Source of the DNA: a virus
Lineage: Duplodnaviria; Heunggongvirae; Uroviricota; Caudoviricetes
Reading direction: 5' to 3' (one strand)
Virus record (IMG/VR): IMGVR_UViG_2728369181_000009
DNA: 15,124 bases
This document shows, in pieces, positions 1,621 to 14,290 of this stretch (its first letter is position 1; every line of letters starts with the position of its first letter). Made by a program: the position numbers and the translations under genes. The notes under the pieces are model-generated. The model worked only from the letters and a program-made list of their open reading frames with translations, was not told the DNA's origin and made no database searches.

Positions 1621-1644
1621 TCTATACACATTTCTATACACATT
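1621..1644. repeat. Tandem 12 bp direct repeat TCTATACACATT x2; motif recurs near the integrase end
   Basis: Two exact adjacent copies at 1621-1632 and 1633-1644. CTATACACAT recurs inverted at 14051-14060 (overlapping the int start codon) and CTATACAC direct at 14094-14101. Confidence 0.6.
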
Positions 1645-3814: not shown

Positions 3815-3989
3815 TCTGTTCACTCCAGAACCGTGCATTTGATTCGTTGAGTTGCTGCAGGTTGCGACTCTGGCGATCGAAGTTATTGCGTGCCTTTGCC
3901 GCTTCAAGATCCTGACGGGTCAGCATCGGGCGGTGGGCGCGCTGTGGGTTGCCTGCGGCTAATTTCGGATCATAGATAGGCATGCTCAT
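3795..3989 (-). CDS. Small hypothetical protein, 64 aa
   Basis: ORF begins 6 nt after the stop of the 183 aa gene; hydrophilic, basic/Gln-rich. No recognisable motif. Confidence 0.4.
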   Translation of the reverse strand: MSMPIYDPKLAAGNPQRAHRPMLTRQDLEAAKARNNFDRQSRNLQQLNESNARFWSEQNEKAKR

Positions 3990-3995
3990 ATCTCT

Positions 3996-4547
3996 TTAGT
4001 GTTTTTTGCCCCAGAAGGTGGCGTTGTCAGCATTGATGCTGCGGATTGCGTCTCCTGTAGAAATTATTTTCGGAGCGATATTGTTTGCTTTCATGTAGTC
4101 GCCAACCTGCTCGAGTATATCGATAGCCTGATCCAGATGGATTTCTGACATTGGGTTAGGGTGTACGGCGCTGAACGCCTCAGCAGGGGCGTAGCGCAGC
4201 ACATCGAGCGCAACGATGCGCGGGTCGGCGTCGGGCAGTGCTGAATCGTATTTCGGCGCTACGGCACGTACCAGACGCATGAACTCAGCATTCATTGCTG
4301 TCGGTGCCGTGGAAGTAGCAGACGTGCCATTCAAACCGCGGGAAATCATATCGCTGTCGCGGGTGTACATGCGACGCAGGCGGTCGCCGGTGGCGATGCG
4401 CATTTTGCGTTCTTTCTCGAGTGTCGTTGCAAGACTTGCAATGATGGTCGCAACGGTTCCGCTGCACTGGAACTCCTCTTTACTGCCGTCGGCATACGTC
4501 ACCACGCCATCTTCGCCAGTCACTGCGATGTTTGTAATATCTTTCAT
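3996..4547 (-). CDS. Hypothetical protein, 183 aa; first gene of the five-gene operon
   Basis: ATG at 4547 with GAGG about 10 nt upstream. Preceded by an AT-rich promoter region and followed by four tightly linked genes. No family recognised; not obviously similar to P4 Sid, Delta or Psu as I recall them. Confidence 0.5.
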   Translation of the reverse strand: MKDITNIAVTGEDGVVTYADGSKEEFQCSGTVATIIASLATTLEKERKMRIATGDRLRRMYTRDSDMISRGLNGTSATSTAPTAMNAEFMRLVRAVAPKYDSALPDADPRIVALDVLRYAPAEAFSAVHPNPMSEIHLDQAIDILEQVGDYMKANNIAPKIISTGDAIRSINADNATFWGKKH

Positions 4548-5606: not shown

Positions 5607-5944
5607 AACTGTCTACCAACTGTCTACCGATATAATTGATTGATTTATTTAATGTTATTAACACATAACAAAAAAACAATCTGCAAACTGTCTACCAACG
5701 GTCTACCGCATTAATACATTGATAATTAATGATTTTTACTAAATGGTAGACAGTGTAGACAGTTAAAAGAGAAATTTAAAAAATGCCCCCTTAACTATCT
5801 GTTTTTTATATACCCCCCGTGGTGTAGGAATATAGAAATAACTGTCTACCTCTCTACCACATTGAAAATATCTTTATAATTCAAAATATTAATTGGTAGA
5901 TGGTTGGTAGAGGGTTAAGTGAATCTGTCTACCAACCGTCTACC
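5607..5944. repeat. Replication origin with iterons: at least 10 copies of (A/C)(A/C)C(T/G)GTCTACC in both orientations, separated by AT-rich spacers
   Basis: AACTGTCTACC at 5607, 5618, 5686 and 5840; AACGGTCTACC at 5697; AACCGTCTACC at 5934; CTGTCTACC at 5925; inverted GGTAGACAG / TGTAGACAG at 5745-5762; GGTAGATGG / GGTAGAGGG at 5895-5912. Directly 3' of the primase gene. Confidence 0.7.
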
Positions 5945-5971
5945 TTTACGTTTCAGCTTATAAATTTCGTA

Positions 5972-7777
5972 TTATGTTCTGTCGTTAATCCCTGTAGCTG
6001 CTGGCAACCAGCCATCAGCATCATCATCTAACAGAACATTTGTTATCACTCGCCCTTTATCCGGGCCTTTAGTGCATTTAGCCCGCTTATACTCCTTTCC
6101 GTATTCCGCCATAGCTCCTGGCATATCAGTACCAAAGCGTGTCAGTGATACTGGTTTTCCCAGGCCATGCGCTGACATATAGGCTAAATAAGCATGATAC
6201 AGGTATCGCCTCGGGCTAAATGGCACTATTTCCGCATTGCCCACCATCATTCCTTCACATTTAACCAACGACATCAGATAGCCGCAAAAGTCCACCAGTG
6301 AATCACCTTCGCGCTTTATCAACAGCGCTTCTTCTGATTTTTGCTGCTCATAAAGTAGTCTTTTAGCTTCGTCCTGGTCGGTAAATCGTGTTAGCAAATG
6401 GCGAATCACTACCGCCAGTTCGCCTTCTATCTTTTCCGCCAGCATGGGATCGCGTTCGTTCTCCGGTACGACCTCAGAGAAATTAAATATCACCCTACGA
6501 CGCGAGATCCCCCCGCTTCGGTCACTGAATGACATGGCGTTATTGTTTACCGCAAGCACTACTGCCGGAATACGTGTGGAGTAGGGGGCTTTATGTTTCG
6601 GATCAATTGCCACCTTGTCGCCGCCAGTAATTGCCTTAATTCCTGCACCATCGCCAGCGTAGCGAGTCATATCCGGCATGATAATCAGCGAAAAGCCAAC
6701 TACTAACGCGCGTTCCCTTGCGTCTTCCAGAGCCTTCATGCTTGCCGATACTGTGTTGGCCTTACCCGCCAGCATGGTACAAATCTCAGCCATCACACTT
6801 TTACCGCTTCCGCCTGGGCCTGTTACCTCAAGGAATAACTGCCAGTCGTACCGGTTCGCCAGTACCATGAATAATGCCGCCAGTACGCGATCAGCTTTAC
6901 GCTCATTATCTGCCACCGAACGACGCAGCCACTTCCAGAAATTCGGCGCATGTGTTGCCAGCGTTTCCCCCTCTGCTGGTGGGCTGAACGGTAATTCACT
7001 GGCATTTAACAACCAGTCATTTTTGTTATGCTCCCGAAAATTTCCCGTCCGGGTATCAAATACCCCGTTACTGAATCCAATAAGATTCCTGTCTGCCCCG
7101 CCCATAACAGGCAGGCTCAATTTCATTGTGTCTACGGCAAATTTAATGGCGTTTTGCGAATAACTGATTCCAGCATCAATAAAAATCTTCGCCATAGACC
7201 GCTGGAGTTCCTTATCAGATACAGGCACCCAGACAATTCCGTTGTAATGGTGAACTACATCAGAATCATCATTTATAGCCAGTGCTCTTCCATAATATTC
7301 AAGTAACACTTCCCCTCTCTGGCTGGCTCCCATCTGATTTAGTGCTGGCCTGGATAGGTCAATATTTTTTGTGGCTAATTTCATCGCTGAAACTTCCCCA
7401 CTCTCTGCCTGTTCGCGGATCCGTTGCAGGTAGTCGCGCCAGTTTTCCGGCTCCCGGTCGGTGATACCTTTGTATAATTTCGCGTCCTGTACACCAGCCA
7501 GCGCCAGCTTTTCAGCAATAGCATTGATCTGGATTGGCTCTATCTCCCCCGCGAGATAGACACGCGCAAAGCGACGTTCATCGTCGACAATGCGGATATT
7601 CGCCAGGTCTGCCAGTTGCTTTGGCCCCAGGTAAACAGGAGGCACGTTATCGCCGTGTTTTCGTCCTTCGCTTTCAATCCAGTGTTGAGCATGGGCGTAA
7701 GCATCCGTCCCGGCAAAAATGATTACCTCGGTGAATTTATCCTTCGGCTGATATTTTAAATTCGGTGCGTTTTTCAC
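5972..7777 (-). CDS. Replication primase/helicase, 601 aa (P4 alpha-like; P4-family primase C-terminal NTPase domain)
   Basis: Walker A motif VTGPGGSGKS in the C-terminal half, an N-terminal primase-like region, size and position upstream of the iterons. Start overlaps the upstream gene stop (ATGA). Confidence 0.8.
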   Translation of the reverse strand: MKNAPNLKYQPKDKFTEVIIFAGTDAYAHAQHWIESEGRKHGDNVPPVYLGPKQLADLANIRIVDDERRFARVYLAGEIEPIQINAIAEKLALAGVQDAKLYKGITDREPENWRDYLQRIREQAESGEVSAMKLATKNIDLSRPALNQMGASQRGEVLLEYYGRALAINDDSDVVHHYNGIVWVPVSDKELQRSMAKIFIDAGISYSQNAIKFAVDTMKLSLPVMGGADRNLIGFSNGVFDTRTGNFREHNKNDWLLNASELPFSPPAEGETLATHAPNFWKWLRRSVADNERKADRVLAALFMVLANRYDWQLFLEVTGPGGSGKSVMAEICTMLAGKANTVSASMKALEDARERALVVGFSLIIMPDMTRYAGDGAGIKAITGGDKVAIDPKHKAPYSTRIPAVVLAVNNNAMSFSDRSGGISRRRVIFNFSEVVPENERDPMLAEKIEGELAVVIRHLLTRFTDQDEAKRLLYEQQKSEEALLIKREGDSLVDFCGYLMSLVKCEGMMVGNAEIVPFSPRRYLYHAYLAYMSAHGLGKPVSLTRFGTDMPGAMAEYGKEYKRAKCTKGPDKGRVITNVLLDDDADGWLPAATGINDRT

Positions 7778-11519: not shown

Positions 11520-11717
11520 TCAGGTAGCTGTTCCGCGTGATTCCGCAATACGCTGATTAATCCACTCGTCAATTTCACTCTCAACGAAAGCAATAGCTCG
11601 CGAGCCAATTTTAACTGATGCAGGAAATTTACCTTGCCCCATAAGGCGATAAATCCATGCCTTGCTATATCCAGTTCTACGCTGAACTTCTGTTAAACGA
11701 ATAAGCGTATTTGACAT
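11520..11717 (-). CDS. alpA: AlpA-family transcriptional regulator / excisionase-like, 65 aa
   Basis: IRLTEVQRRTGYSKAWIYRLMGQGKFPASVKIGSRAIAFVESEIDEWINQR has the AlpA/MerR-type HTH pattern of CP4-57 AlpA. GAGGT RBS. Placed downstream of a P4-type int gene. Confidence 0.85.
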   Translation of the reverse strand: MSNTLIRLTEVQRRTGYSKAWIYRLMGQGKFPASVKIGSRAIAFVESEIDEWINQRIAESRGTAT

Positions 11718-11786
11718 ATATTTACCTCATAACGTCTACTCAATTTGACGAGGTAATCCTGGCACAGAAATAACGAATATTTTCAT

Positions 11787-11911: not shown

Positions 11912-12709
11912 TTAATCCGGCTTTGCGTTCTTTTGGCTGTTGTCTCGGTTAATAGGGCAGGCAGTCCTCTCTATGAGCGTTGCAAGTGCATTACTTGCCC
12001 CCCACTGCTTAAGCTCCCTGGTTATCGCTTCTTGATTTCCCCTGGTGGCAAAATCATTTTCTGGATCGTAATTGGCCCACTCTCTGTTTCTAATCTCAAT
12101 AGCCTTAGCTAATGGGTCTTTATCCCAGTATTTATATAAGTGTATCGGGCGCTCTTGCTCTAACTGCTCTATCCTTGCCCTTAACTCTGCGTTTTCTTTT
12201 TCCAGCATTGCGATTTGGGATAATAAATCATCCTCTGTACGCAACTCTTTCTTTTCAATATCGCGTCCTTGTGCCTCGTCATTTTCAGAAGAGTTAGCGC
12301 CTTCCAGCTTCGTTAACGCGTCAAGGACATCGGGAAAAATTGCGAAAATTTCACCCCTTATAAATCCAATGTTCTCAAATTCGGGATCTTCCCAATAACC
12401 GGACACCAGAAAACCATTTTCATCCCTCTCACCAGGTAAACAACCACGTTTCCGAACCGCATTCAGATTTCTATAAAGAACATCATAATCAAATTCATCC
12501 CGATACGGGTTACAAAAAGATTCCAACAGCTTAAATTCATTTACTGTGTACAGGCGGATATGTTCTCCGCTTATTCTCCTGAGTATCCAAGTTATGACAT
12601 CTGAAACATCATAATCATCACCAGCGACCTTAAGCACGACCTCAAGAAATTCACGTAAAGAAATAAAATCTTTTTTGTATTCGTTTAATTCGGCATGAAT
12701 ATCAATCAT
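11912..12709 (-). CDS. Hypothetical acidic protein with central coiled coil, about 265 aa; accessory gene between int and alpA
   Basis: ATG at 12709 with GAGGTG RBS 6 nt upstream (the track ORF starts two codons earlier at GTG 12715). Asp/Glu-rich, with a heptad-like segment LLSQIAMLEKENAELRARIEQLEQER. No catalytic motif seen. Confidence 0.55.
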   Translation of the reverse strand: MIDIHAELNEYKKDFISLREFLEVVLKVAGDDYDVSDVITWILRRISGEHIRLYTVNEFKLLESFCNPYRDEFDYDVLYRNLNAVRKRGCLPGERDENGFLVSGYWEDPEFENIGFIRGEIFAIFPDVLDALTKLEGANSSENDEAQGRDIEKKELRTEDDLLSQIAMLEKENAELRARIEQLEQERPIHLYKYWDKDPLAKAIEIRNREWANYDPENDFATRGNQEAITRELKQWGASNALATLIERTACPINRDNSQKNAKPD

Positions 12710-12837
12710 ACGCACACCTCAGCGTCCTCTACTGTAGTGGCTGTACCAGTCCGTCGAGGTGTACGGATTTTCGGGAGCGACCCTAGACACAGACTTTTCT
12801 TTCGTCGCTCAAAGTCTACTACTGTATACGCAACCAG

Positions 12838-14052
12838 TCATCCACATTTTCCGAACTTGCCATGCACCACGTTACCGCCATGTTCGAGCGAATCCATATA
12901 GTCGGCGTACCACTGTAGCATCTCGCGCCGCCCGTCCAGATATTGCGCATGGTTGTACGTGCCACGAATTGAGTTTTTATCGACGTGCGCGAGCTGCGTT
13001 TCTATCCACGCAGTGTTATAGCCCTGCTCATGCAAAATGGTGCTCATGGTGTGCCGGAATCCATGACCAGTAACGCGCCCGGCATAGCCGATACGACGAA
13101 TGAGCACATTCATCGCCATTTCACTCATTGGCTTACTGTGGCGAATACGACCGGGGAAAATAAACTGATACTGGCCTGTCATGTTTTTTAACTGCTCCAG
13201 TATTTTTATTGCCTGTTCTGGTAATGGCACGCAATGCGGACGGCGCATCTTCATTCGTTCTTTAGGCACTTCCCACAAACGATTATCAAAATCGATCTCC
13301 CGCCATTCTGCCTGCCGTAATTCCCCGGGTCTGACACCTGTCAGAATTAATAACCGCATTGCCAGTTTGACGATCTGGCTTCCGGTGTACGTATTAAAAA
13401 CGCGAAAAAATTCCGGCAGTTCGTCGGCCTTCAAATAGGCGTAATGCTCTTTTTTATGTGGAGCAAATGCGCTCACCAGGTCAGGGGCTGGATTATATTC
13501 AGCGCGTCCGGTGATGATTGCGTACCGGAACACCTCGCCGCATCGCTGGCGAACCTTACGCAATTTTTCAGTCGCACCACGGTCGTTAAGACGGGAAAGA
13601 ACCGCCAGCAATTCCATCGGCTTAATTTCTGCGATCGGCCTTGCGCCAATGTACGGAAAAACGTCTTTTTCAAACGTCTCGATCATTTCCTCGGCGTATG
13701 ACGATGACCACCTGTCGATCCGCTTTTCGTACCATTCGCGAGCGATACCCTCAAAAGTATTGCCAAATTTGCTCGCCTGTTCTCGCTTTTGGGCTTTTCT
13801 GGCCTCACTTGGATTTATACCACCAATAAGAAGCCTTTTAGCCTCATCCCTTGCAGCCCTGGCATCAGACAGAGACACATCAGGGTACACGCCCAACGAC
13901 AACATTTTGGGCTTTCCTGCAAACCTGTAGCGCAGTCGCCACCCTTTCGAACCGTTCGGCTCAATGAGCAACGAAAGCCCGTTACCGTCATTGAGCGTAT
14001 AAGCCTTTTCTTTCGGCTTCGCACGCCTGATAGCAAGGTCTGAAAGCAGCAT
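12838..14052 (-). CDS. int: P4-family tyrosine integrase, about 404 aa
   Basis: N-terminal LNDGNGLSLLIEPNGSKGWRLRYRF arm-binding-type domain; C-terminal catalytic residues (R in VRPGELRQ, HGFRHT, Y in GTYNHAQY). Adjacent to the tRNA 3' end. The ATG at 14052 (MLLSDLA...) is preferred over the upstream in-frame ATG at 14091. Confidence 0.9.
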   Translation of the reverse strand: MLLSDLAIRRAKPKEKAYTLNDGNGLSLLIEPNGSKGWRLRYRFAGKPKMLSLGVYPDVSLSDARAARDEAKRLLIGGINPSEARKAQKREQASKFGNTFEGIAREWYEKRIDRWSSSYAEEMIETFEKDVFPYIGARPIAEIKPMELLAVLSRLNDRGATEKLRKVRQRCGEVFRYAIITGRAEYNPAPDLVSAFAPHKKEHYAYLKADELPEFFRVFNTYTGSQIVKLAMRLLILTGVRPGELRQAEWREIDFDNRLWEVPKERMKMRRPHCVPLPEQAIKILEQLKNMTGQYQFIFPGRIRHSKPMSEMAMNVLIRRIGYAGRVTGHGFRHTMSTILHEQGYNTAWIETQLAHVDKNSIRGTYNHAQYLDGRREMLQWYADYMDSLEHGGNVVHGKFGKCG

Positions 14053-14127
14053 GTGTATAGCTCCAAAAAATAAATTTTGTCCTATACGCATTACTATACA
14101 CTTCTGTGTGTAGATTCTGGTAGTTGT

Positions 14128-14202
14128 GAGTAGACGTTAATAAACTATGAAAATGGCTGGAAGGCTTGATATTCGTGGGTTTGATGGACTTTAGTAGACG
14201 TT
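14128..14202. promoter_or_regulatory. int promoter / attachment-arm region with two direct copies of AGTAGACGTT
   Basis: GAGTAGACGTT at 14128-14138 and TAGTAGACGTT at 14192-14202. A third copy of AGTAGACGTT lies in inverted orientation at 11731-11740, in the alpA leader. Confidence 0.45.
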
Positions 14203-14216
14203 GAGAAATGTTTGTT

Positions 14217-14290
14217 TGGAGCGGGCGAAGGGAATCGAACCCTCGTATAGAGCTTGGGAAGCTCTCGTTCTACCATTGAACTACGCCCGC
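14217..14290 (-). tRNA. glyU: tRNA-Gly (anticodon CCC)
   Basis: Reverse complement reads GCGGGCGTAGTTCAATGGTAGAACGAGAGCTTCCCAAGCTCTATACGAGGGTTCGATTCCCTTCGCCCGCTCCA, 74 nt, with cloverleaf, CCC anticodon in loop CTTCCCAAG, and encoded CCA. Confidence 0.95.

Follow-up and report, generated by a model that had tools for sequence, protein, structure and literature searches.

The window analysed here, the whole 15,124-nucleotide stretch of the Caudoviricetes record IMGVR_UViG_2728369181_000009, contains a 12.65 kb island of the type found in P4 and in phage-inducible chromosomal islands (PICIs), sited in a tRNA-Gly(CCC) gene. Two 10-mers, CTATACACAT and AGTAGACGTT, recur around the termini of this island, near its integrase gene int and in the leader of alpA, the gene of an AlpA/Vis-family protein; the question is which proteins these repeats serve. 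The motifs are quite probably cis-acting sites of a P4-type site-specific recombination module. The initial annotation had proposed arm-type or directionality-factor sites linking int expression to alpA autoregulation, a proposal that holds and can be divided, on sequence grounds, between two proteins: the CTATACACAT copies would be arm-type sites of the integrase (Int), and the AGTAGACGTT boxes would most likely be sites of AlpA acting as a Vis-type excisionase and regulator. All the copies that it listed are present at their positions, to which an additional arm site (14082-14091) and an additional box (12810-12821) can be added.

Two Families of Repeats around the Attachment Site

The motif CTATACACAT occurs exactly at 1622-1631 and 1634-1643 on the plus strand and at 14051-14060 on the minus strand, and with one mismatch at 14094-14103 (CTATACACTT) and 14082-14091 (CTATACGCAT); these five matches compare with 0.79 expected, and none of 200 shuffles reached five. 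They form three elements: a distal tandem pair of candidate arm-type sites (1622-1643, plus strand; CTATACACAT twice with a 12-bp period), whose distance to the centre of the core block is about 78 bp; a degenerate int-proximal pair (14082-14103, plus strand; CTATACGCAT followed by CTATACACTT) with the same 12-bp period; and an inverted site (14051-14060, minus strand) between the int ribosome-binding site (GGAG) and the ATG. This last copy had been described as lying over the int start codon; it is indeed present, but it covers only the A and the T of the ATG (14052-14050).

Alignment of the window to the empty yqeG/tRNA-Gly site defines the island borders as a 20-bp direct repeat, TTGGAGCGG(G)CGAAGGGAAT; its distal copy lies at 1545-1563, where direct reading also gives TTGGAGCGG-CGAAGGGAAT with one G missing, and its other copy, TTGGAGCGGGCGAAGGGAAT, at 14216-14235, at the 3′ end of tRNA-Gly(CCC). 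Joining the island ends yields an attP with one tandem pair on each side of the 20-bp core. The two pairs have the same orientation, their starts are 212 bp apart, and they lie about 78 and 133 bp from the core centre. On the int strand this attP reads, in order, the pair ATGTGTATAG-AA-ATGTGTATAG, 58 nt and the core; then Box I, an ATCAA element and Box II; and then the pair AAGTGTATAG-TA-ATGCGTATAG, 21 nt including GGAG, and the inverted CTATACACAT ending in the int ATG. Repeats unlike the core are thus found on both arms of attP (the pairs 1622-1643 and 14082-14103 and the inverted copy 14051-14060).

The second motif, AGTAGACGTT, has exact copies at 14129-14138 and 14193-14202 (plus strand) and at 11731-11740 (minus strand), and a fourth copy carrying one mismatch at 12811-12820 (minus strand, AGTAGACTTT); four matches compare with 0.59 expected and were reached in 2 of 200 shuffles. 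With a weight matrix built from the att boxes of relatives, the best match in the window (14192-14203, minus strand, 17.3 bits) belongs to Box I (14183-14202, minus strand; AACGTCTACT AAAGTCCATC), which starts 13 nt from the core. Box II (14109-14138, minus strand; match at 14128-14139, 15.9 bits) consists of three repeats, AACGTCTACT CACAACTACC AGAATCTACA, phased at 10 bp, by or over the putative int promoter region. Box III (12800-12830, plus strand) combines CAAAGTCTACTA (12810-12821, 16.1 bits) with weaker flanking repeats; it lies 17 nt past the int stop, opposite to transcription and just upstream of an Rfam int-alpA RNA. Box IV (11730-11741, plus strand; TAACGTCTACTC, 15.9 bits) is found in the alpA leader, 13-24 nt upstream of the ATG and opposite to alpA, within a hairpin that pairs the ribosome-binding site. 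The next-best match in the window scores 10.2 bits, and a scan of the distal arm with the same matrix returned nothing above 8.6 bits.

The Arm Motif Follows the N-Terminal Domain of the Integrase

A set of 160 loci carrying integrase relatives (58-99% identity), gathered from genomes and viral contigs, was searched blindly for the layout of two 9-mers 11-13 bp apart with an inverted copy downstream. Of the roughly 128 related loci whose upstream sequence is long enough, about 115 have the pair and the inverted copy upstream of int; a spacing of 12 bp holds in all of these except one and, in most loci, the inverted copy precedes the int ATG by 6-10 nt and the pair lies at about -51 to -53. The layout is kept while the motif itself falls into classes: TGTGTATAG, TTGTATAG, GGGGGTA(T/C), GGGGGCAT and others. 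The window's 1622-1643 pair is also present in locus L084, and a far-end second pair of the same class as the first occurs at +12.4 kb in the window, +11.1 kb in L115, +8.9 kb in L146 and +20.5 kb in L085. In contigs representing the excised form (attP; L105 and L155), the second pair, again of the same class, lies 211-212 bp upstream of the first; the separation in the window is 212 bp and that in P4 is 209 bp. The class of the arm sites agrees on both arms in all of these (the window, L115, L146, L085, L105, L155 and P4). L085 is the selC island of strain BL21.

The class tracks the first 88 residues of Int and not the remainder, including the catalytic part. Integrases with TGTATA-class arms are 60-100% identical to the query over these 88 residues whatever the identity of the remainder (60-100%), and for integrases with GGGGG-class arms the identity in this domain is 42-61%, including those with 75-76% identity over the remainder (L018, L021 and L023). 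The loci L124-L138 separate the two candidate proteins, their AlpA being 100% identical to that of the window and their arms nonetheless of the GGGGGTA class. Because the class follows the N-terminal 88 residues of Int, and because an identical AlpA can accompany different arms, the arm motif is assigned to Int rather than to AlpA, and the CTATACACAT copies are regarded as putative Int arm-type sites. In L124-L138, the 3′ end of int, the next open reading frame (ORF) and alpA are nearly identical to those of the window, the integrase as a whole is only 66% identical and the target is tRNA-Thr; this is a clear case of module exchange with a breakpoint inside int.

The Boxes Keep Their Positions and Co-Occur with alpA

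An alignment of the core-to-int region of 23 representatives, less than 80% identical there and sited in several different tRNA genes, resolves four conserved blocks separated by variable spacers. Block 1 (AACGTCTACTAAAGTC) is located 13 nt from the core; block 2 (ACGTCTACT..ACGTCTAC..GAAATCTA) abuts the arm pair; blocks 3 and 4 correspond to the arm pair itself and to GGAG with the inverted arm copy. The conserved columns of Box II range from 0.6 to 0.9 across the same representatives, and the boxes remain unchanged across arm classes and tRNA targets. Box I with two repeats and Box II with three, both with a 10-bp period, are confined to the int-proximal arm, between the core and the arm pair; sites of recombination directionality factors (RDFs) are typically direct repeats one helical turn apart (PMC7498355).

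Across 147 non-identical loci (1.78 Mb), the matrix gives 256 matches of at least 12.5 bits, the threshold of the scan, and 236 of these fall at the four conserved positions: 161 in the att-int region, a circular count as the matrix was trained there, 39 at 17-44 nt after the int stop and 36 at 22-63 nt upstream of alpA (at -22, -24 or -63), with 20 elsewhere. At the position after int, relatives carry an array of three to four phased TAGAC repeats directly upstream of the Rfam int-alpA RNA. Strong boxes on the att arm also go together with an alpA gene within 5 kb: 73 loci have both, 4 have alpA only, 7 have boxes only and 23 have neither (Fisher p = 1.8e-13, in a count that takes no account of shared ancestry or physical linkage), the corresponding numbers among integrases at most 67% identical being 45, 1, 5 and 18. 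The boxes are read as AlpA sites because of these conserved positions (from the core to the arm pair, after int and before alpA) and of this co-occurrence with alpA.

The int-alpA RNA of the window (RF02996; 12726-12793, minus strand) scores 40.3 bits, above the gathering score of 35.8, and is located between the int stop codon and the following ORF; a box array of the AlpA type stands directly upstream of it both in the window and in many relatives. This arrangement suggests that this orphan RNA is under AlpA control or that it is the leader of the downstream ORF.

A Proposed Mechanism for Recombination and Its Regulation

In the proposed mechanism, the ends of the circularised island would join to form attP; the N-terminal domain of Int would bind the five arm sites while its catalytic domain acts at the core, and this combined arm and core binding would build the integrative and excisive complexes. 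AlpA would bind Boxes I and II, headed by AACGTCTACT on the int strand, bend the arm and steer the reaction toward excision. P4 Vis is said to bind two boxes between int and the core. Binding of P4 Vis to the attP region has been demonstrated by electrophoretic mobility shift assays and footprinting, and Vis is required for excision (PMC2603039). The likely int promoter and the segment from the ribosome-binding site to the ATG are covered by the int-proximal pair and the inverted copy, so that Int bound at these sites would be able to shut off int; such autorepression is reported for P4. From Box II, AlpA may modulate the int promoter in either direction, and through Boxes III and IV it may be linked both to its own expression and to that of the downstream operon. 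In P4, the int promoter is repressed by both Int and Vis, and the region includes a high-affinity site for integration host factor (IHF) (PMC7286903).

The placement of the int promoter is itself a proposal. A -10-like hexamer, TATAGT, is found on the int strand inside the arm pair (14093-14098) and would correspond to CATAAT in P4 and TATAAA in the family consensus; in several relatives, the conserved GAAATCTA of Box II takes the form TTGAAATC, and it occupies the place expected of a -35 element. A weak IHF-like element, ATATCAAGCCTTC (14160-14172, minus strand), lies between Boxes I and II, with two mismatches to WATCAANNNNTTR; its P4 counterpart by position is AAAATCAATGCTTG, and it is on this positional analogy that it is tentatively considered an IHF element, as no IHF site with at most one mismatch was found in the int-proximal arm. 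Elsewhere, a site with one mismatch to the IHF consensus (1645-1657) adjoins the distal arm pair on its core-distal side, and two exact WATCAANNNNTTR matches occur among the origin iterons (5633-5645 and 5712-5724).

Several points weigh against this reading. As the matrix was trained on att boxes, independence is limited to the counts obtained downstream of int and upstream of alpA, and the association with alpA is subject to the reservation on ancestry and linkage given above. A scan for sigma-70 promoters of int and alpA found none on the relevant strand, and promoter overlap is thus no more than a proposal. The AlpA of the island EcCICFT073 has no effect on a Pint reporter (PMC6092414), which casts doubt on Box II acting in transcription from the int promoter and leaves its role as an RDF site unaffected. 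Box IV, which sits just upstream of the ribosome-binding site in the hairpin, varies in orientation with the type of leader, which is unusual for an activator site. Finally, both the protein assigned to each site and the sign of any regulation are deduced from sequence and position.

The alpA Leader and Alternative Explanations

One alternative concerns Box IV alone, whose sequence could mainly be part of an RNA hairpin that hides the ribosome-binding site of alpA and controls translation or stability, rather than a DNA operator, its similarity to the att boxes being secondary; this appears unlikely. In the hairpin (11722-11756, minus strand), the ribosome-binding site AUGAGGUAA pairs with UUACCUCGU, the arms (11722-11730 and 11748-11756) enclosing a 17-nt loop. 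A helix of 7-11 bp pairing the ribosome-binding site with an upstream segment is found in most leader types despite their different sequences (CTCGTAA/TTACGAG, CTCCTGTAG/CTACAGGAG or CCCCCTGT/ACAGGGGG), and alpA leaders fold better than random contexts of a Shine-Dalgarno sequence and an ATG, with a mean z of -2.33 against -0.54. On the other hand, the window's own leader has a z of -0.09, and RNAalifold applied to a MAFFT alignment of the alpA leaders returned zero consensus pairs, the arms being out of register between leader types, so that no formal covariation test was passed. A hairpin alone would not need the box to be held at -22 or -24, as it is in many loci, and roles as an RNA hairpin and as a DNA operator are in any case compatible.

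A further possibility, speculative and given little weight here, is a four-site AlpA regulon of AACGTCTAC boxes comprising the two excision boxes, the array before the int-alpA RNA and the box in the hairpin; AlpA would act after initiation, by antitermination, the mode known for Pseudomonas AlpA, or by RNA binding, and open its own leader and the downstream operon. If true, such a regulon would couple excision to a self-reinforcing switch. RNA binding has reportedly been observed for P4 Vis. Upstream of alpA, three ACCCTNAGGGT palindromes are also present between 11821 and 11896 (0.17 expected), and relatives carry at the same place CACTTCCA repeats or GTAATATTAC or TTGCATGCAA palindromes; these elements look like interchangeable operators, possibly serving the inducer from a helper phage or the variable ORF that separates int from alpA.

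The GTCTAC boxes could also have a different binder, for instance a nucleoid protein of the host or some other part of Int, with AlpA merely travelling in the same module. All box-bearing hosts are Enterobacterales, and a host factor would also explain the conservation; the co-occurrence with alpA could be physical linkage, and seven loci have strong boxes and no alpA within 5 kb. Against this, the boxes fade in 23 of the 30 loci lacking alpA, although their hosts belong to the same families, and they do not match the IHF consensus; the motif also stands at fixed places downstream of int and in the alpA leader, two locations at which a host factor for recombination would not obviously be needed, and it is the arm motif, not the box motif, that tracks the N-terminal domain of Int. 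A binder other than AlpA is therefore considered quite improbable, and AlpA remains the preferred candidate for the boxes.

A connection of the AGTAGACGTT copies with the origin iterons, suggested in the initial annotation, would make them sites of the primase-helicase (Rep) and couple replication to excision. The iteron AAC(T/G)GTCTACC and the box AACGTCTACT have AAC and GTCTAC in common, offset by a one-base insertion; yet the iterons score at most 10.0 bits on the box matrix, compared with at least 15.9 for the boxes, and the boxes lie away from the origin. L084, with an int-att region 98.7% identical and the same four boxes, has ACTGTTCAC iterons, and other relatives with the same boxes have GTGTTCAT, TGAACCAAC, TAACCGAC or TATCTACC iterons. 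Because relatives with identical boxes have unrelated iterons, the resemblance is, from this comparison of sites, coincidental; the matrix scores and the diversity of the iterons contradict the role of the boxes as Rep sites, which is very hard to maintain and was rejected.

Lastly, the notion that the repeats are chance matches in AT-rich intergenic DNA, which can invoke the roughly four 10-mers with at least three copies expected in a window of this size, is contradicted by the conservation of position, spacing and orientation in more than 100 loci with integrases 58-82% identical and several tRNA genes, and was rejected as having practically no likelihood. The argument initially made from three copies of a 10-mer does not stand as such, since 28 different 10-mers in the window reach three or more copies (about four expected under a Markov-1 model) and three copies alone thus prove little; its conclusion stands, the motifs being non-random by placement and conservation.

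Organisation of the Island and Neighbouring Features

The window runs from yqeG (1-1230) through the island to tRNA-Gly(CCC) (14217-14290, minus strand) and then actS/ygeR, and all island genes read on the minus strand. The G missing from the core copy at 1545-1563 falls in its GGG run; damaged tRNA fragments at this junction are reported to be common for PICIs, in contrast to prophages (PMC10111431). The yqeG/tRNA-Gly site is empty in most of 5,426 complete E. coli genomes and a near-identical island is present in only one, while the int-att module alone is found with at least 80% coverage in 83 E. coli genomes.

The int gene (12838-14052, minus strand) encodes a P4-type tyrosine integrase with an N-terminal arm-binding domain, as identified by Pfam (Arm-DNA-bind_3, PF13356, 2.5e-25; Phage_int_M, 4.9e-33; Phage_integrase, 9e-28); the alignment of relatives supports the start at 14052. 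An in-frame ATG further upstream (14089-14091), inside an arm site, would make int 417 aa long; it is out of frame in relatives, and the longer ORF from 14091 was rejected as its reading frame is not conserved. The upstream ATG is thus probably not used, as far as this conservation can tell. Two possible starts have reportedly been described for P4 int.

An ORF with no assignment (11912-12715, minus strand) separates int from alpA (11520-11717, minus strand), which encodes a 65-aa winged-helix protein of the AlpA/Vis family (Pfam Phage_AlpA, 2.4e-19) matching PDB entry 8c3t, an “AlpA family phage regulatory protein”, at 1.3e-4. Other genes of the minus strand include an AntA-like gene, a D5-type primase-helicase gene (5972-7777), which is followed by the AAC(T/G)GTCTACC iterons (5607-5960), and a ProQ/FinO gene. 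The order int, alpA and pri-rep with a downstream origin, in one direction over about 10-15 kb and with a dedicated att site, is the organisation of Gram-negative PICIs as described in PMC6092414 and PMC10111431.

Thirteen exact Chi sites (GCTGGTGG; 8 plus, 5 minus) occur between 1690 and 11497, all within the island, where shuffles predict 0.43; two neighbouring copies (11479 and 11490) lie just downstream of the alpA stop. They may shield linear DNA, whether replicating or packaged, from RecBCD. Two perfect inverted repeats stand back to back at 1678-1737 (TTATCCGTGATCA...TGATCACGGATAA and CCGATATGGG...CCCATATCGG), immediately internal to the distal arm pair, the loop of the first containing a Chi site; they are probably the terminators of the leftward operon.

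Comparison with Known Systems

The closest likeness is to the attP of P4 (Pierson & Kahn 1987; Cali et al. 2004; Piazzolla et al. 2006) in the number, orientation and spacing of the arm repeats, with pairs about 210 bp apart. The P4 GenBank record annotates an “attP arm sequence repeat” with the motif GGGGGCAT, inverted over the int start (3915-3926), as a 12-bp pair at 3942-3965 and, beyond the core (4078-4097), as another 12-bp pair at 4151-4174. In both systems there is an RDF of the AlpA family (37% identity between the window's AlpA and P4 Vis by tblastn), the interval from the core to the arm pair contains repeats with GTC and an ATCAA element, and a CGTCT motif lies upstream of the RDF gene. 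They differ in the arm motif (TGTGTATAG in the window, GGGGGCAT in P4) and in the box (AACGTCTAC as compared with GCGTCT/GTCC); the window targets tRNA-Gly(CCC) and P4 targets leuX, and the island is of the PICI type and lacks the cI, sid, psu and delta genes of P4. In P4, moreover, CGTCT lies near the inferred -35 of PLL, whereas the box of the window is inverted and located by the alpA ribosome-binding site.

In the attP of helper-embedded PICIs (HE-PICIs), a doubled tgTGTATTGCa (TGTATTGC) motif lies at 81 and 132 bp from its centre (Mageeney et al. 2023, PMC10111431), and the study left open whether Int or AlpA binds it. The window likewise has a tandem motif with a 12-bp period and a TGTAT core, present twice and co-oriented, at about 78 and 133 bp from the core centre; it differs in reading TGTATAG rather than TGTATTGC, in the integrase clade and in the target. 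The covariation described here provides comparative evidence on this question and favours binding of the doubled motif by the arm domain of Int rather than by AlpA, as far as sequence comparison can indicate.

The attP of phage lambda carries the arm sites P1, P2 and P′1-3, the Xis sites X1, X1.5 and X2 and the IHF sites H1, H2 and H′. As in lambda, the window has five arm-type sites over two arms, direct repeats for the RDF on one arm between an arm site and the core, and a heterobivalent integrase. In contrast to lambda, the arm-binding domain belongs to another family (Pfam Arm-DNA-bind_3), the sites are distributed 3+2 instead of 2+3, the RDF boxes form two separated clusters and int adjoins attP and is directed away from it.

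EcCICFT073 and other Gram-negative PICIs (Fillol-Salom et al. 2018, PMC6092414) resemble the island in having int, alpA and a primase-helicase with a downstream iteron origin, all in one direction, on a small island with its own chromosomal site; the lack of an AlpA effect on Pint in EcCICFT073 sets it apart from the regulation proposed here. The PICI papers searched describe no AlpA or Int binding sites, and those on EcCIMP1 and on the phage-inducible chromosomal minimalist islands (PICMI) give no AlpA site data. In Pseudomonas aeruginosa, AlpA is an antiterminator loaded onto RNA polymerase through an element, GGGACG-N5-GGTA, between -35 and -10 (PMC7969949). This protein belongs to the same Pfam family, and the alpA leader of the window (11731-11727 region), like the leaders of the related loci, reads TAGACG-N6-GGTA; as the GGTA of the window belongs to the ribosome-binding site, and as the att boxes have no GGTA, the resemblance is a lead that may be a coincidence.

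Taken at the level of sequence comparison, the system belongs to the known P4-type kind of attP, Int and Vis, in a PICI setting, and reveals no new mechanism. By comparison with these systems, it offers a testable map for a PICI-type satellite in E. coli, with five putative Int arm sites and four candidate AlpA box clusters that would control integration, excision and induction, and a family-wide consensus for the AlpA box, unreported for PICIs in the literature searched, that could help to annotate the att sites of satellites and the promoters controlled by AlpA.

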